64,000 bases of DNA from the IMG/VR virus record IMGVR_UViG_3300044612_002689. The stretch is one strand, 5' to 3'. This stretch comes from an uncultured virus (IMG/VR IMGVR_UViG_3300044612_002689). Taxonomy: Duplodnaviria > Heunggongvirae > Uroviricota > Caudoviricetes. The translations under genes and the position numbers were made by a program. The notes below the pieces were generated by a model, which searched no databases, had not been told where the DNA came from, and was given only the letters and a program-made list of their open reading frames with translations. This document shows, piece by piece, positions 3,530 through 45,688 of the stretch. Position 1 is the stretch's first letter, and the number at the start of each line of letters is the position of its first letter.

Positions 3530-3841
3530 ACTATGAAAAAAAAACAATCACAAATAGATGTTCCAGAACCTGAAAAACAAGTAATTGAAACTCCCCATGA
3601 AAATTATGAAATAGTTGCTGAAGGATTTTCATTAACATTTTCACAATCCACAAATTTATGTGAGAGACAAAGTTTAATGAATGTTTTAAAAATCTCGACC
3701 GACACATGTCATACAGGACCAAAATTCTGGATTCAAACAGAAAAATGGGACTTTGATGATATTGAAGAATTGATTGAAATTTTAAAAGTTTTTGATAGAA
3801 AATATAAACTAATGTTTGGGGACCAAAACTAATTAATTTTT

Positions 3842-4258
3842 ATGAGAATTGGAATTACTTGCTCTTGTTTTGATTTATTACATGCTGGACATATTTTAAT
3901 GCTCCAGGAATGTAAGGAGGTTTGTGATTTTTTATACGTTGCGTTTCAAACTGACCCTACATCTGATAGACCAGAAAAAAATAAACCGGTACAATCTGTT
4001 TTAGAAAGGTTCATACAACTTAAAGGATGTAAGTTTGTGGATGAAATAATTCCATATGAAAATGAAAAAGATTTGGAAAATATTTTTAAATCATTTAATT
4101 TTGACGTGAGAATCATCGGTGAAGATTATAAGAACAAAGATTTCACGGGAAGACAAATTTGTTTAGAACGAGGTATAGAGATCTACTATAATAAAAGATC
4201 CCACGATTTCTCAACTTCAAACCTTAGAAAAAAAATTGAAAATGGAAAAAAGAATTAA
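3842..4258 (+). CDS. Cytidylyltransferase (glycerol-3-phosphate CTase, TagD-like)
   Basis: FDLLHAGH (HxGH), VDEIIPY, IIGEDY, RSHDFSTSNLR. Confidence 0.85.
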   Translation: MRIGITCSCFDLLHAGHILMLQECKEVCDFLYVAFQTDPTSDRPEKNKPVQSVLERFIQLKGCKFVDEIIPYENEKDLENIFKSFNFDVRIIGEDYKNKDFTGRQICLERGIEIYYNKRSHDFSTSNLRKKIENGKKN

Positions 4259-4488
4259 GAGTTTCAGTAATATCCAAGACTGGATTGAAAAAGTAATCGA
4301 GTCATGTCAAACATTTGAACACACCCAAACTACCAAAAATTTAATTTACAATTTCCAAAAACAAATTATGGAAAAAATCAATGATCATAACTCAATGATT
4401 AGTATTACACAACCTTTATTGTTAAAATTGGAAAAAAAAGAAGAACTAATTTATTTTTCAAACTTAAATTAGTTTTTTACGAAAAAAA

Positions 4489-4520
4489 TTTGATTAATCT
4501 AAATATATGTTTTACATTTG
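4489..4520 (+). promoter_or_regulatory. Bacteroidota-type -33/-7 promoter
   Basis: TTTG-N20-TACATTTG directly upstream of the tRNA cluster. Confidence 0.75.
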
Positions 4521-4532
4521 TAAAAAAAAGTT

Positions 4533-4615
4533 AGTCAGGAGTGTAAAGAGACATGGTGTTGAATCCATCTGTTATAGATGGTTGCTCATTGTAGGTTCGA
4601 ATCCTATCCTGACTT
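4533..4615 (+). ncRNA. tRNA-like element 1 (aberrant D/anticodon region)
   Basis: Acceptor AGTCAGG/CCTGACT and T-arm GTAGG-TTCGAAT-CCTAT; central hairpin CCATCT-GTTAT-AGATGG; no canonical D-arm or U33. Confidence 0.55.
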
Positions 4616-4691
4616 CAACTAAGGAAGCAATATGAGAGTCCTGAATTGTACACAAAATATCCGTATTGACATCTCGGAAAGACGAGAAAAT

Positions 4692-4758
4692 AGTCAGGTG
4701 GCGTTATTGGAGTACGCATCGTAAATGAGGATTACAGGTTCGAATCCTGTCCTGACTG
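4692..4758 (+). ncRNA. tRNA-like element 2 (anticodon arm essentially missing)
   Basis: Same acceptor AGTCAGG/CCTGACT, D-arm GCGT..ACGC, T-arm ACAGG-TTCGAAT-CCTGT; only 16 nt between D- and T-arm. Confidence 0.6.
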
Positions 4759-4770
4759 CTAAATTAACTT

Positions 4771-4843
4771 GGTCCCGTGGTTGAATGGTTACAATTCCAC
4801 CCTGTCACGGTGCGAGATACGGGTTCGAATCCCGTCGGGACCG
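4771..4843 (+). tRNA. tRNA-Asp(GTC)
   Basis: Cloverleaf: GGTCCCG/CGGGACC acceptor, loop CTGTCAC, T-arm ACGGG-TTCGAAT-CCCGT, discriminator G; CCA not encoded. Confidence 0.92.
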
Positions 4844-4867
4844 CAAAACTTATTAAAATTAAAAAAT

Positions 4868-5137
4868 ATGAAAACTTTTGAAGATTTAGAATTTGAACAA
4901 TTAAATGACGAACCATTTATGGTTGGTAAAAAAGGTCGTATGCAATTTGACAACGGCTTTGGTGTATCTGTTGTATCACACACTCATTCATACGGAGGTC
5001 GTGATGGACTTTATGAAGTGGCCGTTTTAGATAAAGATGGTCTTTTGACTTATGAGACTCCTGTGACAAGTGACGTAATTGGTTACTTGAGTGAAGAAGA
5101 TGTAACTGATGTCATGAAAAAAGTTCAAGAACTTTAA
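4868..5137 (+). CDS. Conserved phage hypothetical protein
   Basis: Start reassigned to MKTFEDL after the tRNA; FDNGFGVSVV..SYGG..GLYEVAVL motif. Confidence 0.7.
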   Translation: MKTFEDLEFEQLNDEPFMVGKKGRMQFDNGFGVSVVSHTHSYGGRDGLYEVAVLDKDGLLTYETPVTSDVIGYLSEEDVTDVMKKVQEL

Positions 5138-40880: not shown

Positions 40881-41495
40881 ATGAGAAGAATTACAGAATC
40901 AGAGTTGATTAGACTGGTCAGACGAGTTATTAAAGAAGAAACATCCGGTCATGGGGATTTTATTGAAACCTTGAGATCAAACTTTAATATGTCAGATGAA
41001 TTGGTTGGTTTTGTTAGTGACTTCATCGAAAATTCAAATTGTAATAAAATAGAATTTGCAAAATTTAAGTACGCAGCCTTGGGGGCGTCCCTTCATAATG
41101 GGGTATTAATTAATGATGTGGTTTTACGTGGTTCATTGGAAGTTGCATTGTTTTCAATATTTCATGAGATTGCTCATCAGTACCAATATAAGAAATATGG
41201 TATTGAAAAAATGTATGAATTTTATAACGATGAAATATCGGTTATTGAGACCGCAAAATTTATGAAGGAAGTTGAAACGGTTGCCGATAGTTTTGCATCC
41301 CGAAAAATTAGAGAACTTCAAAAAATGGGTTTGATCAGTAGAAACTTTGTTCCAATTGAAATGTATAAAAATGTTTCCGAATCTCAACTTGCTCATTTTA
41401 TTACTAAAATTAGATCAGAACTAAGGTCCAATAATATTTATTCTCCGGATGATATTAGCGAGTATTATTATAACTTGATGAAAGACCAACTTTAG
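40881..41495 (+). CDS. Putative zinc metallopeptidase with leader
   Basis: MRRITESELIRLVRRVIKEE leader; FHEIAHQYQ..E..AD.FA. Confidence 0.6.
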   Translation: MRRITESELIRLVRRVIKEETSGHGDFIETLRSNFNMSDELVGFVSDFIENSNCNKIEFAKFKYAALGASLHNGVLINDVVLRGSLEVALFSIFHEIAHQYQYKKYGIEKMYEFYNDEISVIETAKFMKEVETVADSFASRKIRELQKMGLISRNFVPIEMYKNVSESQLAHFITKIRSELRSNNIYSPDDISEYYYNLMKDQL

Positions 41496-41512
41496 GGTTT
41501 TTTTGAAAAAAA

Positions 41513-41544
41513 TTTGATAATATAGATATTTTCATTTAGTTTTG
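41513..41544 (+). promoter_or_regulatory. Bacteroidota-type promoter
   Basis: TTTG-N20-TAGTTTTG before ATG 41551. Confidence 0.7.
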
Positions 41545-41550
41545 AAAAAG

Positions 41551-42180
41551 ATGGAAAAAAAGGTTTGCACAAAATGTGGTGAAGAAAAAGTTCTCACAGA
41601 GTTTAATAAAAATAAACGACAATCTGATAACTTTTCCCCACAATGTAAATTGTGTAGATCAGCAGAAAGAAAAAAATATTACGCAAAAAATAAAACTCGA
41701 GAACTTGAAAAAATAAAAGAATATCAAGTATTAAATAAAGATTCAATATCTAATCAACGAAAAAAATATAGAAAAGATAATCGAAAGGTTTTATCGGCAA
41801 AACACAAAGATTACATCAAACAAAGAAAATTGATTGATCCCATTTTTAAATTGAAGGAAAGAGTTAGATCCAAAATTCGAAAATCATTGTCCAAATTTAA
41901 GTCATCGAAACAACTCAAGACAATTGAAATTCTTGGGTGTGATCATGGTGAGTTTAAGTCACATATTGAATCCCAATTTGAACTTTGGATGACCTGGGAT
42001 AATTATGGTCTTTATAATGGAAAATTGAATTTTGGTTGGGACCTGGATCATATTATACCTTTGTCATCAGCCGTCACAAAGGAAGATGTTTTTAAACTTA
42101 ACCATTATACAAATTTTCAGCCCCTATGTTCTCACATTAATAGAAACGTCAAAAAAAATTCTTTAACATGGAAATCCTAG
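41551..42180 (+). CDS. HNH-like endonuclease with N-terminal Zn finger (paralog of 36671)
   Basis: KVCTKC..CKLC; MTWDNYG..WDLDHIIPLS..NHYTNFQPLC. Confidence 0.82.
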   Translation: MEKKVCTKCGEEKVLTEFNKNKRQSDNFSPQCKLCRSAERKKYYAKNKTRELEKIKEYQVLNKDSISNQRKKYRKDNRKVLSAKHKDYIKQRKLIDPIFKLKERVRSKIRKSLSKFKSSKQLKTIEILGCDHGEFKSHIESQFELWMTWDNYGLYNGKLNFGWDLDHIIPLSSAVTKEDVFKLNHYTNFQPLCSHINRNVKKNSLTWKS

Positions 42181-42239
42181 GTTGGAACACCCGTTCCGGA
42201 CTTCGTCCGAATATTTTTTAAAAATATTTTGAAAAAAAA

Positions 42240-42271
42240 TTTGACTATTGAAAAAATTAATTCTAAATTTG
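42240..42271 (+). promoter_or_regulatory. Bacteroidota-type promoter for tnpB-CRISPR unit
   Basis: TTTG-N20-TAAATTTG, 4 nt before ATG 42276. Confidence 0.75.
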
Positions 42272-42275
42272 TACT

Positions 42276-43523
42276 ATGAAAAGAGAAAAAAAGGTTGGAG
42301 TATTAAATAAGGGGTTTAAGTATCGAATATACCCCAATAAAACCCAGATTAAACAAATCGAGGGTGCAATACAAGCGGCAAGGTATGTTCGAAACCTAAC
42401 CATCGATCTTGATCGACAAATATATTCTCTGGGTGGAAAACCAAATTTATCACATTTTGGATTAAATAAACATATAACAAATTATAGAAAATCGGCACCC
42501 TTTTTAAATGATCACGATTCACAGATTTATATGTATGAAATGGAACATTTAAGTAAGGCTTGGTCAGATTTTTTTGATAATACAAAAATCTATAAACAAG
42601 TCATTAAAAACAATCCGAAGACCGATATGAAACGTCCCACACCACCGGATTTTACAAAAAAGAATGACCAAAAACAAAGTTTTACAACACGATTAATTAA
42701 TACTAATATACAAAAACACGGAATAAAAGAAGATGGTAAGTTAACTTTACCAAAAATTACTGGAAATATCAAAGTCCAATATCATAGACCAATTATTGGA
42801 ATTCCAAAAAAATATACGATTTCCAAAAAACATGGAAAGTACTATGTGTCAATTTTGGTAGAATATAAGAACGATGTTTCAAAAAAGGAAGTCAAGTCTG
42901 TGGTTGGTATCGATGCGGGTGTAAAATCTTTGATTGTTACATCAGAAAATGAAGTTATTAAAAATCCAAAATACCTGAACCAACATTTAAATCATTTGTC
43001 AAAATTGATAAGTAATAGGGACAAATGTGTAAAGTACTCTAACAACTGGAAAAAGTTGAATAAAAAAGTTCATGTTTTAGAAGAAAAAATATCAAACTGT
43101 AGAAAAAATTATAATCACAATGTATCCAAAAGACTGGTCGATCAATATGATTTGATTTGTATGGAAGATTTGGATCTTGTTGAAATGACGAAATCAAATA
43201 AAGGTACCGTTGAAAATCCTGGTACCAACGTTAAACAAAAATCAAACTTAAATCGAAATATTTTGGACGCTGGTCTTGGGATGTTACGTGAAATGATTAT
43301 TTATAAAAGTGTCTCCAGCGGGAAACACACAATTAAAGTGGATAGATTTTTTCCATCAAGCAAGAAATGTAATAATTGCGGTACGGTGAATGAAAATCTA
43401 CTTTTATCTCAACGGGTTTGGGAATGTAAAAACTGCAAAAGCGAAATTGATCGTGATTACAATGCGGCTTTAAACATTCGGGACTTAGGTAAGAAAATGT
43501 TCTTTGAAAATTTAGAAAATTAG
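42276..43523 (+). CDS. tnpB: TnpB-like RNA-guided RuvC nuclease (candidate miniature type V effector)
   Basis: FKYRIYPN N-terminus; RuvC-I GIDAG, RuvC-II MEDL, CNNC..CKNC Zn finger, RuvC-III DRDYNAALNI; CRISPR array 110 bp downstream. Confidence 0.93.
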   Translation: MKREKKVGVLNKGFKYRIYPNKTQIKQIEGAIQAARYVRNLTIDLDRQIYSLGGKPNLSHFGLNKHITNYRKSAPFLNDHDSQIYMYEMEHLSKAWSDFFDNTKIYKQVIKNNPKTDMKRPTPPDFTKKNDQKQSFTTRLINTNIQKHGIKEDGKLTLPKITGNIKVQYHRPIIGIPKKYTISKKHGKYYVSILVEYKNDVSKKEVKSVVGIDAGVKSLIVTSENEVIKNPKYLNQHLNHLSKLISNRDKCVKYSNNWKKLNKKVHVLEEKISNCRKNYNHNVSKRLVDQYDLICMEDLDLVEMTKSNKGTVENPGTNVKQKSNLNRNILDAGLGMLREMIIYKSVSSGKHTIKVDRFFPSSKKCNNCGTVNENLLLSQRVWECKNCKSEIDRDYNAALNIRDLGKKMFFENLEN

Positions 43524-43633
43524 GAAACAAAAACTGGGTGGTGTGACATCCAATTTAATTGTGGTCAAAACTCAATTTGTGGGTTTATAATGACAACAAG
43601 AGCCTTTCATTTATTATGTTTCCAAAATACACA
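43523..43633 (+). ncRNA. Candidate tracrRNA/omegaRNA-like scaffold
   Basis: Closing stem GGAAACA/TGTTTCC, two hairpins and three patches complementary to the repeat. Confidence 0.55.
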
Positions 43634-44051
43634 GTTGTGTGTGATCTTTATTTGAAGGGTAATCACAACGGAGGAAGAGTGTAGAAGACAACTTATCGCG
43701 TTGTGTATGATCTTTATTTGAAGGGTAATCACAACGGGGATTTGGGTTAGCGCTTCCTTTTTCAAGTTGTGTATGATCTTTATTTGAAGGGTAATCACAA
43801 CGCTCAACGGTTTGCCGATTAATAGAAAACAGTTGTGTATGATCTTTATTTGAAGGGTAATCACAACGAGATGGAAAGTGCTGTATAACAACCTAAAGTT
43901 GTGTATGATCTTTATTTGAAGGGTAATCACAACAAATTAAGGTCGCACAATCGTTTGTTTTGAGTTGTGTATGGTCTTTATTTGTAGGGTAATCACAACA
44001 AATCTATCTACATTTAAATTTTCTGAAAGTTGTATATGATCTGTATTTGAA
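43634..44051 (+). CRISPR. CRISPR array: 6 full 36-bp repeats plus 1 truncated degenerate repeat, 6 spacers (5 x 30 nt, 1 x 29 nt)
   Basis: Consensus GTTGTGTATGATCTTTATTTGAAGGGTAATCACAAC at 43634, 43700, 43766, 43832, 43898, 43964; partial at 44029. Confidence 0.97.
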
Positions 44052-44062
44052 TTTATTATATT

Positions 44063-44093
44063 AAAACCCCATCTTTAACAGGTGGGGTTTTTT
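44063..44093 (+). terminator. Intrinsic terminator closing the CRISPR transcript
   Basis: AAAACCCCATCT-TTAAC-AGGTGGGGTTTT plus T-run. Confidence 0.85.
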
Positions 44094-44127
44094 ATTTATC
44101 GTGATATTTATTTTAAAGAGTTAAATT

Positions 44128-44472
44128 ATGAAAAACGTACTTATATATTTGGTTTTTATTTCATTACTATTTTCATGTAAAAAAAAGGAAGTAGAGCCAC
44201 AAAGAAATGTCACATATAAAATCCAGTGTTCGGATTGTTATGTTTATTATAAAGAAAACGGAAAACCAAAATCAGAATTTCATCAAAACTCAACCTGGTC
44301 TCATAACTTTGTTGGAATGAAAGACAGTTTGGTTTTGGTGTATGCCATGAACACCTCAGGTCAAAATCAATTTGTTTCTGCAACAATTCTATTGAATGGT
44401 GACACATTGAAACACGCGACCGGGAGTTGTCCGATATCTGGAACCGTTGCGGTATCTGATACTCTTCGTTAA
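44128..44472 (+). CDS. Lipoprotein
   Basis: MKNVLIYLVFISLLFS-CKKKE lipobox. Confidence 0.75.
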   Translation: MKNVLIYLVFISLLFSCKKKEVEPQRNVTYKIQCSDCYVYYKENGKPKSEFHQNSTWSHNFVGMKDSLVLVYAMNTSGQNQFVSATILLNGDTLKHATGSCPISGTVAVSDTLR

Positions 44473-44473
44473 T

Positions 44474-45688
44474 ATGGAAAAATTTAGATTTAAACAATTA
44501 ATTGAATCAAAACTGGGGACCGTTAAACCTCTATTGGTGGAAGAATCTGAAACGTCGGCAGATGAGTGTAATGTAAATATTGCTCAATCTGATGAGACCG
44601 CAGATGCTTTCTGGGACAATTTCAAAAAATCAACTTTAGTCAAACCTTATGATTATAATTCTACGGTCAGGTTTCAAAAATGGGTTAAGAAAAATTATCC
44701 ATCGATAAACCTTGGAACCTTCGGAATAAAAAAAGATGGGGTTGATGGGAAATTTGGAAAACTTACCCAATCGGCATGGAATAGAGTGGGAAATGAGTAT
44801 TTGAAAGGAGGTTCCCAATTAAATCTCCCATTAACTTTCACAATTAATGAAGATATTAAAAGATCTATTTCAAAGGCAAGAAACGAATATTTAAAATGGT
44901 TTAGTGATGAAAACACAAGAAAAAAATTCAAAAACCAAAAACTTATTCCCCAACTTTTAAAATATATTAATACCCTTACTTCTTACAAATCATATTATAA
45001 TAAAAATCAATCACCCAATCCGAAAACTTTTGGGTGGGTTAAATATGCAAAAAGTGCTTCCCAACTAAATGAATTAAAATACAAATCAATAAATTTAAAC
45101 GTGTTTAATATTCATAATGGGAAAAATTATATTGCATCACTCGATCAAGTAACAAAACATGAGATGGGACATTTGATTGATAATTTTTTAAGGATTTATA
45201 AAGAACCAACCTATATCTTAACACAAAATACTCCAACTTCCCAACAAGAATACTCACAAACATATATAACCAACGATTCGGAAACTTATAGTAGATTAAA
45301 TAATTTTAGGACAATTATTGAAGCCGGCCCAATGGACGATGGAAATCAAATGTTAAACAAATTTTTTAATAAAATTAGATCTGGAACCATCCAGGTTAAG
45401 GGATTTGATCTATCGGCAATGTATAGTTCCACTAAACCCAGAAAAGCGTCTGTTGACCAAGCAAATGAAATTATGAAATCTTTGAGGAAAATGATTTTAG
45501 TCAACGGTCTTAGTTCTCATAATACCCAACAATTATTTTCCGAGTATGGAATACAATCACAAGGAAACATTTATGTATCGTTTTATTTGTTGGGAAGATT
45601 AAATCAAACTTCTAAAGGTCCGGAAGATGAAAACAAAAAATCAAATTATCTTTATTTGAAATTTACCCCAATCAATCAATCAGTTTAA
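44474..45688 (+). CDS. PG-binding-like plus HExxH metallopeptidase protein with FRFKQL leader
   Basis: FQKWV..DGVDGKFGKLTQSAW; KHEMGHLID..ETYSRL. Confidence 0.6.
   Translation: MEKFRFKQLIESKLGTVKPLLVEESETSADECNVNIAQSDETADAFWDNFKKSTLVKPYDYNSTVRFQKWVKKNYPSINLGTFGIKKDGVDGKFGKLTQSAWNRVGNEYLKGGSQLNLPLTFTINEDIKRSISKARNEYLKWFSDENTRKKFKNQKLIPQLLKYINTLTSYKSYYNKNQSPNPKTFGWVKYAKSASQLNELKYKSINLNVFNIHNGKNYIASLDQVTKHEMGHLIDNFLRIYKEPTYILTQNTPTSQQEYSQTYITNDSETYSRLNNFRTIIEAGPMDDGNQMLNKFFNKIRSGTIQVKGFDLSAMYSSTKPRKASVDQANEIMKSLRKMILVNGLSSHNTQQLFSEYGIQSQGNIYVSFYLLGRLNQTSKGPEDENKKSNYLYLKFTPINQSV

Follow-up and report, generated by a model that had tools for sequence, protein, structure and literature searches.

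A predicted tracrRNA-like scaffold between a tnpB-like gene and a type VI-B-class CRISPR array in an uncultured tailed phage

The segment that separates a TnpB-like nuclease gene from a CRISPR array in a large uncultured tailed phage (positions 43523-43633 of the window, the whole 64,000-nucleotide stretch of DNA analysed) probably encodes a tracrRNA-like scaffold that, as part of a dual guide RNA, would serve the 415-aa nuclease next to it, judging from comparison of related loci. The scaffold would correspond to the 5' four fifths of a TnpB omegaRNA. The loop of its hairpin 1 (stem 1), UGUGA, would be pseudoknotted to UCACA close to the repeat's 3' end, hairpin 2 would supply omegaRNA stems 2 and 3, and an 8-nt anti-repeat, GCCUUUCA, would pair with UGAAGGGU of the repeat as the last stem of an omegaRNA with its loop opened. 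The missing 3' fifth and the guide would come from the 3' 17 nt of the repeat and the downstream spacer. Transcription of tnpB, scaffold and array is probably co-directional, stopping at a terminator at 44063-44091. The first unit would fold in cis in the manner of an omegaRNA, later units would pair with the scaffold in trans, and the loaded nuclease would cut DNA matching the spacer. A discrete RNA species, protein binding, cleavage and the targets are parts of this dual-guide model that we infer.

Systems of this kind are already known (TranC, type V-U); the unexpected part is the presence of VI-B-class repeats at a phage TnpB locus. The emergence of type V CRISPR from transposon TnpB is an active question, for which the phage family provides a concrete tracrRNA:crRNA model of a CRISPR-linked nuclease that is still TnpB in size and fold. 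The small size of the system (415 aa and a scaffold of ~100 nt) also makes it of interest for genome editing.

The nuclease gene and its surroundings

The gene at 42276-43523 (plus strand) encodes a TnpB-like RNA-guided nuclease of 415 aa with a short C-terminal tail; its RuvC residues D213, E297 and D394 are intact, as is a CxxC...CxxC zinc finger. The protein matches Pfam families OrfB_IS605, Cas12f1-like_TNB and HTH, and scores 275 bits with NCBIfam guided_TnpB, for which the cut-off is 100. D213, E297 and D394 align with the catalytic D/E/D of ISDra2 TnpB and are invariant among 117 sequences, while residues 9-402 are collinear with residues 4-371 of ISDra2 TnpB. An AF2 model based on 117 sequences (pLDDT 90.9) was used instead of one from 21 sequences, which was poor (pLDDT 62.5). 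The best structural matches of the predicted fold are the TnpB proteins of ISDra2 and ISFba1 (8h1j and 8iaz; TM 0.72-0.82). The tail that follows RuvC-III comprises 21-22 aa in the phage clade, compared with 28-48 aa in the three non-CRISPR relatives listed, and the 22-aa tail of the window protein is modelled as a helix.

No close relative of the protein was found among GenBank phages, where the top identity was 34%. The gene, the scaffold motif and the array are each present as a single copy in the 187-kb phage record, the completeness of which is estimated at 64%. A search of this record for TnpA of the Y1 type found none, and no transposon ends were found for the phage tnpB locus. With one copy and no Y1 TnpA found in the record, the locus does not show the features of a mobile IS200/IS605 or IS607 element.

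The scaffold and its contacts with the repeat

The scaffold occupies the interval from the stop codon (43523) to the first repeat (43634) and shares the plus strand with the gene, the array and the terminator. Its closing stem is formed by GGAAACA (43523-43529), which overlaps the TAG stop codon, and TGTTTCC (43617-43623), both in the MFE fold and by comparison. Within it lie hairpin 1 (43535-43552; stem TGGGTG/CATCCA, loop GTGTGA), which corresponds to omegaRNA stem 1, a near-invariant linker, ATTTAA (43553-43558), and hairpin 2 (43559-43599), the counterpart of omegaRNA stems 2 and 3. Hairpin 2 has a conserved base stem (with one G-A mismatch in the window), an internal loop with an invariant TGA and a variable upper stem. 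The anti-repeat GCCTTTCA (R:AR-2, 43602-43609) follows and pairs with TGAAGGGT at repeat positions 20-27. The tail ATACACA (43627-43633) is complementary to the 5' TGTGTAT of the repeat, making a palindrome that spans the leader-repeat junction, and is lineage-specific. A preliminary description of this DNA had already placed GGAAACA/TGTTTCC, TGGGTG-GTGTGA-CATCCA, the 43559-43599 hairpin, GCCTTTCA and ATACACA correctly.

The same description saw a structured RNA in this segment. The MFE fold does recover the closing stem and both hairpins (-25.7 kcal/mol), but the window fold taken alone is unexceptional and no better than chance (z = -1.74; 8/200 shuffles fold equally well). It cautioned that patches of 7 to 8 nt might pair by chance; 43523-43633 and the repeat share six gapless complementary runs of at least 7 nt (Watson-Crick plus G-U), compared with a mean of 5.1 for dinucleotide shuffles; in this AT-rich sequence six or more runs were reached in 813 of 2000 such shuffles. 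Real and chance contacts with the repeat are separable only through homologous loci. In co-folding of scaffold and repeat, the repeat favours its own hairpin, and the ATACACA tail is the sole part that pairs in the minimum-energy co-fold. An Rfam scan of 41000-45000 (E up to 1) gave three sub-threshold matches, none of them on the scaffold.

The scaffold module, followed by an array of 36-nt repeats and 30-nt spacers (period 66), was present at 17/17 loci that encode a protein at least 40% identical and lie on a contig continuing past the gene. These loci are the window, L001, L083, L088, L004-6, L084, L085-87, L089, L007, L090 and L091-93, and they represent seven lineages on phage or metagenome contigs. 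No CRISPR array was present at any of 91 examined loci with 26-36% protein identity. An IMG/VR scan with the scaffold motif found nothing beyond the contigs already in the locus set. TCACAAC-like ends occur at 10 of 91 distant TnpB loci, which is near chance expectation, and the omegaRNAs of these loci look different.

It is clear that the module is both kept and covarying in the seven lineages. Taken together, hairpin 1, the pseudoknot, the hairpin 2 base and R:AR-2 pair in 94.6% of 336 cells, compared with 41-51% when the partners are slid by one to three columns. In these elements six pairs are changed on both sides, a number attained by 1 of 500 shuffles. RNAalifold alone recovers both hairpins, with compensated changes in 10 of 16 predicted pairs. 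Hairpin 1 pairs in 96.4% of cells, U-A being replaced by C-G in two sequences and G-C by A-U in one. The base stem of hairpin 2 covaries (UUACC/GGUAA, UUAUU/GAUAA), and its upper stem differs in sequence in each lineage with pairing kept. The closing stem is kept as GGAAAC/GUUUCC in the window group, L088 and L004, and occurs in compensated form (GGAAAU/AUUUCC) in L085-89; it was not found in L007 or L090.

In the model of the preliminary description, a tracrRNA would contact the repeat at three patches: TTGTGGT with ATCACAA, GCCTTTCA with TGAAGGGT, and ATACACA with TGTGTAT. All three are complementary in the window, L001 and L083, and the third is compensated once, in L004 (ATTCACA:TGTGAAT). 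However, three patches are what chance would provide, and comparison makes the scheme as a whole extremely unlikely. The first patch pairs in 70% of cells, and at columns 61-63 no pair forms in 11, 7 and 8, respectively, of the 14 sequences; its pairing breaks while the repeat end stays constant, and holds only in the window's own lineage. TTGTGGT covaries with the opposite (3') strand of hairpin 2, and TTGTGGT:ATCACAA is rejected because the segment is a covarying stem of that hairpin. The third patch is lineage-limited: it is kept in two lineages, the window's and that of L004, and absent from 4/7, and the loci without it include L088, L007 and L091-93.

The second patch fared better. Across 14 sequences GCCUUUCA:UGAAGGGU pairs in 89.3% of cells, each lineage forming 6 to 8 of the 8 pairs, and in L007 a change of CC to UU in the anti-repeat accompanies G to A changes in the repeat. 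Counting against it are two central mismatches in the L085-89 lineage and one in L090 and in L091-93. Duplex energies computed across lineages for scaffold tails against repeats likewise show no clear diagonal except for L085-89 (the L088 tail was wrongly cut).

The 3' end of the repeat more likely pairs with TGTGA of the hairpin 1 loop (R:AR-1, 43542-43546), as a putative pseudoknot with TCACA at repeat positions 30-34; in each repeat this TCACA sits 3 to 7 nt 5' of the spacer. UGUGA:UCACA gives 5/5 pairs in 14/14 sequences. Only L007 varies, on both sides (UGUAA with UUACA), and elsewhere both sides are invariant and hence uninformative on covariation.

A fused first unit, in which the scaffold leads into a half repeat and then a spacer, is present in L091 and L092 (two modules each) and in L007. 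Here R:AR-2 closes as a hairpin, ATCGTTCA-loop-TGAAAGGT. From their sequence these units resemble a natural single guide RNA and, standing before a full array, may be regarded as living intermediates. The earlier proposal of a split omegaRNA acting as tracrRNA is thus supported in substance by conservation, covariation, the ISDra2 architecture and the fused first units, although its pairing scheme was one third right.

The array, RNA-library contigs and alternative functions

The CRISPR array (43634-44064, plus strand) contains six 36-nt repeats, starting at 43634, 43700, 43766, 43832, 43898 and 43964, and spacers of 29-30 nt. This six-repeat part has a period of 66 and covers 43634-43999; a seventh, starting at 44029, has a degenerate 3' half. 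A terminator-like hairpin and T run (44063-44091, plus strand) ends the tnpB-tracr-array unit, and an equivalent hairpin lies downstream of the arrays of L001 and L083. Spacers are almost wholly different between phages with the same scaffold (L085, L086, L087 and L089; L091 versus L092). Searches with 74 phage spacers against the 187-kb record and the collected loci returned self matches only, and the best match of the window array in 50,697 phage records had an E of 0.4. Exact 20-mers of spacers 1-3 gave 0 matches each in IMG/VR, and 70 bacterial spacers matched nothing above chance in the phage record and viral loci.

Metatranscriptome contigs from four runs (four studies) bridge the 3' part of tnpB, the scaffold and the first repeats. 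They span 43372-43650, 43293-43614, 43526-43729 and 43536-43722, and are unstranded, without ends or level and open to DNA carry-over. The four runs gave no contig on 42231-42692 or 44002-44155, where cover may be thin.

These contigs bear on whether the segment is a mere CRISPR leader, promoter or terminator, or else a complete cis omegaRNA guided by the first spacer only, with the rest of the array a passenger. Its location is typical of a leader, hairpin 1 and ATTTAATT are flagged as terminator-like, and two sigma-70-like sites lie inside it. However, the promoter scan gave 12 such sites against 10.8 expected, which is chance level, the RNA contigs traverse hairpin 1, and compensated stems and covariation with the repeat are not expected of leaders. 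A cis omegaRNA finds a parallel in the first units of L091, L092 and L007, each a contiguous omegaRNA-like RNA. At each of the 17 loci, nevertheless, several full repeats persist, their spacers change and their 3' half is conserved, which counts against a leader and a self-sufficient omegaRNA alike, and both are improbable.

Scaffold and array might also serve chiefly to counter the type VI-B system of the host, as an RNA decoy or anti-CRISPR that pairs with or mimics Cas13b repeats. Repeat mimics carried by phages can block CRISPR, the phage repeats are of the Cas13b class, and the window anti-repeat can pair 8/8 with all eight of the Cas13b-adjacent repeats examined. Such a function is very unlikely, however, since the module occurs without exception together with an intact TnpB-like gene whose catalytic residues do not vary. 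Degenerate first repeats retain the 3' half, which is needed by an effector with a downstream guide (type V-like), whereas the Cas13b guide has a spacer and then the whole repeat. This spacer-then-repeat orientation is partly backed by the available text of PMC8092290. The fused first units, moreover, make sense solely as TnpB guides.

Relation to known systems and to type VI-B arrays

The ISDra2 TnpB omegaRNA, as described from cryo-EM in the available part of PMC10097598, has a stem 1 loop pseudoknotted to bases -5 to -3, then stems 2 and 3, a last stem and the guide. The same source proposes that tracrRNA-crRNA pairs stem from the splitting of an omegaRNA-like RNA. Compared with this description (8H1J/8EXA), the phage system has the same protein size and fold, the same order of elements and an RNA beginning at the 3' end of tnpB; L091, L092 and L007 likewise have, as first unit, a single RNA of ~100 nt plus guide. 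Differences are the opened last stem of the window, where repeats and spacers provide the 3' strand of that stem, the strand of the pseudoknot and the guide, and a phage ORF that stops short of running into the RNA. The guide of an omegaRNA directly follows the scaffold; this arrangement is found only in the first units of L091, L092 and L007, whereas in the window a full repeat and array follow. The window scaffold shows two features of a type V tracrRNA: it is encoded beside effector and array on the matching strand, and its anti-repeat is evolutionarily kept.

TranC (Jin et al., Cell 2025) are, as described in citing papers, transposon-CRISPR intermediates. The phage family belongs with TranC/type V-U systems in having a TnpB-like protein with intact RuvC that is linked to an array at 17/17 loci (at least 40% identity) versus 0/91 (26-36%). 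CauTranC9, in the available text of the preprint (bioRxiv 10.64898/2026.03.27.714800), is phage-borne and has 414 aa and five repeats of 38 bp; a consistent tracrRNA structure is reported there for TranC clades 3 and 11, not for others. Like the window protein it is TnpB-sized, without enlarged REC/WED and without the C-terminal domain of ISDra2, it belongs to a tailed phage with a short array, and its guide is interpreted as a split omegaRNA, one part being the tracrRNA and the other the crRNA. The two differ, in a comparison by description only, in repeat length (38 bp versus 36 nt) and number (five versus six). The available text of the CauTranC9 preprint (bioRxiv 10.64898/2026.03.27.714800) makes no mention of Cas13b-type repeats, and the accessible part of the PMC10691335 supplement neither describes the phage TnpB group nor contains any of six contig names searched.

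Cas12n (type V-N, formerly V-U4) provides the best PDB sequence match (RdCas12n, 9J09; E 1e-41). It shares with the phage clade an insertion of ~15 aa after RuvC-II (TKSxKGTVENPGxNV), present in 21/21 clade members and 9/96 other relatives. In the excerpts available from PMC12216341, Cas12n is a monomer that depends on a tracrRNA, bases -4 to -2 forming a 3-bp pseudoknot; it averages ~540 aa, its REC and WED domains are enlarged, and the codons of its disordered tail overlap the tracrRNA. The phage protein differs from this in having 415 aa, a 22-aa tail predicted to be helical, a scaffold that begins at the stop codon and a modelled fold nearest TnpB. The likeness to Cas12f drawn in the preliminary description is right in principle, as Cas12f also has two repeat:anti-repeat contacts set apart from each other, one being a pseudoknot at the repeat 3' end (PMC10097598, available part). 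The sequence match to Cas12f is weak (E 6e-4 to 5e-11), and Cas12f differs in being dimeric and having a longer tracrRNA.

Sigma-factor-linked TnpB proteins have a half repeat fused to the tracrRNA, an inactive nuclease and no remaining array, as far as the available text of PMC10691335 describes them. The fused first units of L091, L092 and L007 are similar, a half repeat directly 3' of the tracrRNA remaking an omegaRNA-like single RNA, but the phage nuclease keeps its motifs, and downstream of the fused unit there is a full array.

The window repeat belongs to the class of Bacteroidota type VI-B repeats (GTTG...TTTGAARGGT...ACAAC, 36 nt, spacers of ~30 nt). Phage repeats are identical at 26-33 of 36 positions to repeats adjoining Cas13b genes; the L091/L092 repeat matches that of a Chryseobacterium array at 33/36 and those of other phage lineages at no more than 30/36. 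The phage array thus shares the repeat class and 30-nt spacers of type VI-B arrays, but it is without an adjacent cas13b, its effector is a TnpB of DNA-nuclease type, and the guide would lie downstream of the repeat rather than upstream. The cas13b model NF038190 had no match in the 187-kb record, in a search with no positive control among 14 control genomes; on the bacterial loci it scored 746-915 bits.

Identity of up to 33/36 with the VI-B class suggests array capture or cross-talk with the host. In published models, so far as the available parts of PMC10097598 and PMC10691335 go, an omegaRNA is split, and it is left open whether arrays come from duplicated omegaRNA segments or from the joining of a pre-existing array. 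In the phage family the repeats suggest that a type VI-B-class array was captured. It may be proposed, tentatively, that a phage TnpB lineage captured a host VI-B array instead of duplicating its omegaRNA, that the stem 1 loop and the 5' strand of the last stem were retuned to the 3' 17 nt of the repeat, and that the two systems are still coupled; this proposal as a whole is rather doubtful. If they are coupled, the host adaptation machinery serving VI-B arrays could refill the phage array, and the phage scaffold and nuclease could read host VI-B precursors, turning an RNA-targeting memory into DNA-cutting guides. A functional link to Cas13b would mean that a phage effector shares a guide RNA format, and perhaps a spacer supply, with an unrelated host system. 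Among the literature matches listed, no title or abstract addresses TnpB-linked Cas13b-type repeats. Two Cas13b arrays found via the protein alone (L182 and L183) also carry UGAARGGU at positions 20-27.

The scaffold, its gene and its array

The segment at 43523-43633 (+ strand) very probably functions as a guide-RNA scaffold, amounting to a split omegaRNA. It lies downstream of a 415-residue TnpB-like ORF (42276-43523, + strand), which carries three Pfam domains of TnpB/Cas12f-type nucleases and the NCBIfam name 'RNA-guided endonuclease TnpB family protein' (275 bits versus a cut-off of 100); its scores against the NCBIfam C2c8 and Cas12f2 models are far under the cut-offs. The gap of 110 bases leads to a CRISPR array of six 36-nt repeats with a period of 66 (43634-43999), then a seventh repeat with a degenerate 3' half and, at the end of the array, a terminator-like hairpin (44063-44091). 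Gene, array and scaffold motif each occur once in the 187,384-base virus record holding the window (completeness estimate 64%), where Cas1, Cas2, Cas13b and Y1 TnpA found no match.

Protein searches gave a tight group of relatives at 47-94% identity, with a gap below it down to at most 39%; among GenBank phages the closest protein match was 34% identical. Scans of viral and metagenome contigs yielded 17 loci, the window included, with a protein at least 40% identical and a contig running past the gene (L094, whose contig stops inside the gene, was left out). All 17 have one layout: gene, conserved module, and an array of 36-nt repeats with spacers of about 30 nt. No array was found within 1.2 kb of any of 91 more distant loci (26-36% identity), picked by hand for extending past the gene. 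The C-terminal tail after RuvC-III is 21-22 aa long in all 21 members of the clade (proteins at least 47% identical) and 28-48 aa in three non-CRISPR relatives.

Scaffold and repeat sequences divide the loci into seven lineages: the window with L001 and L083; L088; L004-6 with L084; L085-87 with L089; L007; L090; and L091-93. L091 and L092 each have two modules, one 5' and one 3' of a single tnpB, all complete with scaffold and array (L091, 1982-2307 and 3484-3810; L092, 2123-2446 and 3665-4123). In both, the upstream copy carries some 35 nt with homology to the 3' end of the gene; immediately 5' of its hairpin 1 stands a TATATTTG box that resembles the Bacteroidota -7 promoter motif.

Directly 5' of tnpB in the window is an endonuclease VII/HNH-type ORF (41542-42180, + strand; PHROG 1035, E 6.5e-22), the start of which resembles that of an ORF just past the array in L085, L087 and L089. 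In L086 (2424-2554) the array abuts what appears to be an HNH-type ORF's C-terminal portion. Homing endonuclease genes and the nuclease-array module may travel together.

Scaffold structure and contacts with the repeat

The preliminary description proposed a split omegaRNA with a closing stem (43523-29/43617-23), a short hairpin (hairpin 1, 43535-52), a long hairpin (hairpin 2, 43559-99) and three patches pairing with the repeat. All strings it quoted are in place, and the minimum-energy fold contains the stem and both hairpins. Single-sequence fold and complementarity carry little weight when taken alone. The fold z-score of the window segment by itself is -1.74 (8 of 200 shuffles equally good), and the six segment-repeat complementary runs of at least 7 nt compare with a dinucleotide-shuffle mean of 5.1, with 813 of 2000 shuffles reaching six. 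Both values are near those of shuffles, justifying the caveat on chance pairing attached to the original proposal.

Covariation across homologous loci, suggested there as a check, was found in both counts made. Four helices (hairpin 1, hairpin-2 base, anti-repeat:repeat and hairpin-1 loop:repeat) were counted in alignment A2, a MAFFT alignment of 14 distinct sequences with the second repeat included. Standard pairs occupy 94.6% of 336 cells, versus 41-51% with partners slid 1-3 columns, and 6 of 24 pairs have changes on both sides, a number reached in 1 of 500 column shuffles. Relatedness among the sequences, and the derivation of the structure from them, make these controls imperfect. A separate RNAalifold run on the scaffold only predicted both hairpins and showed compensation in 10 of 16 pairs. 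Hairpin 2 has an upper stem that differs in sequence in every lineage and remains paired. Three lineages have GGAAAC/GUUUCC as their closing stem, and L085-89 have GGAAAU/AUUUCC; a different stem of 5-6 bp stands at its position in L091-93, and none was found in L007 or L090.

The guide-scaffold reading is supported with a revised pairing scheme, in which patch 2 is kept, patch 1 replaced and patch 3 lineage-specific. In every sequence patch 2, GCCTTTCA (43602-09) with TGAAGGGT (repeat positions 20-27), retains between 6 and 8 of its 8 pairs, and in L007 a CC to UU change in the scaffold accompanies G to A changes in the repeats. Patch 1 (TTGTGGT:ATCACAA) fails, with 3 to 6 of 7 pairs left: the repeat end is constant and the scaffold bases vary (TTACCGG, TTATTCG or TTGTTCC across relatives), with the matching changes found instead in hairpin 2, on its 3' strand. 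A contact unlisted in the preliminary description appears to fit the repeat's 3' end better. In 14 of 14 sequences the hairpin-1 loop UGUGA (43542-46) complements the repeat's UCACA (positions 30-34), 3 to 7 nt 5' of the spacer. L007, the sole lineage to vary at these repeat positions, has a matched change (repeats UUACA, loop UGUAA). From these sequences, a hairpin-1 loop:repeat pseudoknot in place of patch 1 is likely, and graded no higher because the covariation is a single event (L007).

Patch 3 (ATACACA:TGTGTAT) holds in the window's lineage and, compensated, in L004 (ATTCACA:TGTGAAT), whereas L088, L007 and L091-93 lack the segment or have a non-complementary one, and in L085-89 and L090 the match is weak. 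The segment may serve as an additional contact, as a processing site or as part of the leader-repeat junction. About 25 nt 5' of the scaffold, the DNA GTTCTTTGA (43484-43500, codons K-M-F-F-E) is conserved, except in L091-93, where it is absent; its F-F pair near the protein's end is invariant in 21 proteins at least 47% identical. Constraint on the protein, or an RNA signal, could account for this.

Six metatranscriptome runs contain 23-42% of sampled words of 42276-44100, and RNA contigs from four runs of four studies bridge the gene's 3' part, the scaffold and the first repeats (43372-43650, 43293-43614, 43129-43547, 43526-43729, 43536-43722 and 43585-43729). These contigs record presence in RNA libraries, not strand, ends or level, and DNA carry-over is possible. 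At 43615, next to the 3' strand of the closing stem, one contig (run X15) has C for T, probably a strain variant.

Likeness to omegaRNAs and known effectors

According to PMC10097598, the ISDra2 omegaRNA scaffold is 116 nt long and comprises stem 1, a pseudoknot and stems 2, 3 and 4; by cryo-EM, the pseudoknot joins bases -5 to -3 with bases in the stem 1 loop. Stem 4 is equated there with Cas12f repeat:anti-repeat 2 and the pseudoknot with repeat:anti-repeat 1. The omegaRNA is termed a natural single guide RNA, from the splitting of which tracrRNA-crRNA pairs are proposed to derive. The phage module has the same element order, with its last stem open between scaffold and repeat.

In all four modules of L091 and L092 the scaffold runs directly into a half repeat, which closes the last stem as a hairpin with an 8-nt loop and is followed by a spacer and full repeats. 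L007 has a similar fused first unit with a longer loop, and the first repeat of L088 has a degenerate 5' half and retains its 3' half. These first units are the intermediates predicted by the splitting model. A half-repeat fusion of comparable kind is described in an inactive TnpB group (PMC10691335); no published description was found of hybrid loci that combine a fused first unit with an array after it.

The protein aligns end to end with ISDra2 TnpB (residues 9-402 versus 4-371), and the catalytic D, E and D of the two line up. Across 117 sequences D213, E297 and D394 do not vary, nor do three of the four zinc-finger cysteines. The structure model from the alignment of those sequences (pLDDT 90.9) is closest to ISDra2 and ISFba1 TnpB (TM 0.72-0.82), which outrank Fanzor2, LaTranC, Cas12f and Cas12p. 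By sequence, the best PDB match (E 1e-41) is an entry identified as RdCas12n (PMC12216341). Both proteins have an insertion of about 15 aa after RuvC-II, which occurs in all 21 clade members and in 9 of 96 other relatives. The phage protein lacks the traits that define Cas12n: enlarged domains and a tail that overlaps the tracrRNA.

CRISPR-linked TnpB-like effectors are an already established kind, of which the phage system is a variant; the TranC concept is reportedly that of Jin et al. 2025. A PNAS survey describes 40 V-U branches, with the array mostly downstream and mostly without cas1 (PMC10691335). A 2026 preprint reports an active, phage-borne 'CauTranC9' of 414 aa, and a consistent tracrRNA structure only for clades 3 and 11 (bioRxiv 10.64898/2026.03.27.714800). 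The present family may be CauTranC9's clade or a neighbour.

Repeats and type VI-B arrays

The system's most interesting lead is its link to type VI-B repeats; no TnpB-linked array of the Cas13b repeat class was found in literature titles and abstracts. One genome per prokaryote species was scanned for correctly spaced pairs of the window's 12-nt repeat end. Of 13 stretches, two are Clostridia coding repeats and two (L168 and L169) overlap; the ten remaining arrays are period-66 and all from Bacteroidota. Beside these stand six large ORFs, five matching the Cas13b (type VI-B effector) equivalog model at E 1e-238 or lower. The sixth, a 1109-aa ORF in a Flavobacteriales MAG (L173, 8662-11991, - strand) beside a Cas13b-type array, matches weakly (E 1.6e-10, under the cut-off) and has no NCBIfam name. 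Within a very low-scoring BLAST segment it has a C-terminal R-N-x-x-A-H motif in common with Cas13b, and it may be a divergent Cas13.

Phage repeats and Cas13b arrays are alike in length, spacer length, GTTG start and the 3' block TTTGAARGGTAATCACAAC. The L091/L092 repeat is identical to a Chryseobacterium Cas13b repeat at 33 of 36 positions (16/19 in the variable 5' half), above its match to other phage lineages (at most 30/36 and 14/19). Cas13b occurred in 3 of 401 Bacteroidota genomes sampled separately. Two new Cas13b arrays, found without use of the repeat sequence, also have UGAARGGU at positions 20-27, and in one of them the 5' half matches that of the window's repeat at 16 of 19 positions. 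Each of the eight Cas13b-adjacent repeats can form 8/8 pairs with the window's anti-repeat, which with the shared block argues that the scaffold is tuned to a repeat block characteristic of type VI-B.

Other phage contigs carry period-66 arrays with only the last 13 nt in common and without the scaffold motif, adjoining a Cas3-like gene or ORFs without a Pfam family. Since these have the same end, the shared repeat end may point to adaptation machinery in common and not to descent from VI-B arrays themselves. Hoikkala et al. (PMC8092290) showed that a VI-B array is filled in trans by II-C Cas1, and II-C and VI-B repeats have their leader-distal end in common. Spacer sets are almost completely different between phages with the same scaffold, which fits ongoing acquisition; recombination is the alternative.

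Scaffold-less arrays ending in the 13 nt AGGTAATCACAAC are found in L184, L187, L193, L200 and L201 (IMG/VR contigs) and in L185, L190, L186 and L202; three large contigs have two to three each. In one group the array is flanked by a 289-aa ORF on one side and a 749-aa Cas3-like HD-helicase ORF on the other. Others come after ORF pairs (375+328 aa, 355+347 aa) or a 410-aa ORF, none of which has a Pfam match. These neighbourhoods may be unrecognised phage CRISPR effector sets. L203 has a 401-aa TnpB gene (3786-4991, - strand) some 900 nt beyond a scaffold-less array and on the strand opposite to it.
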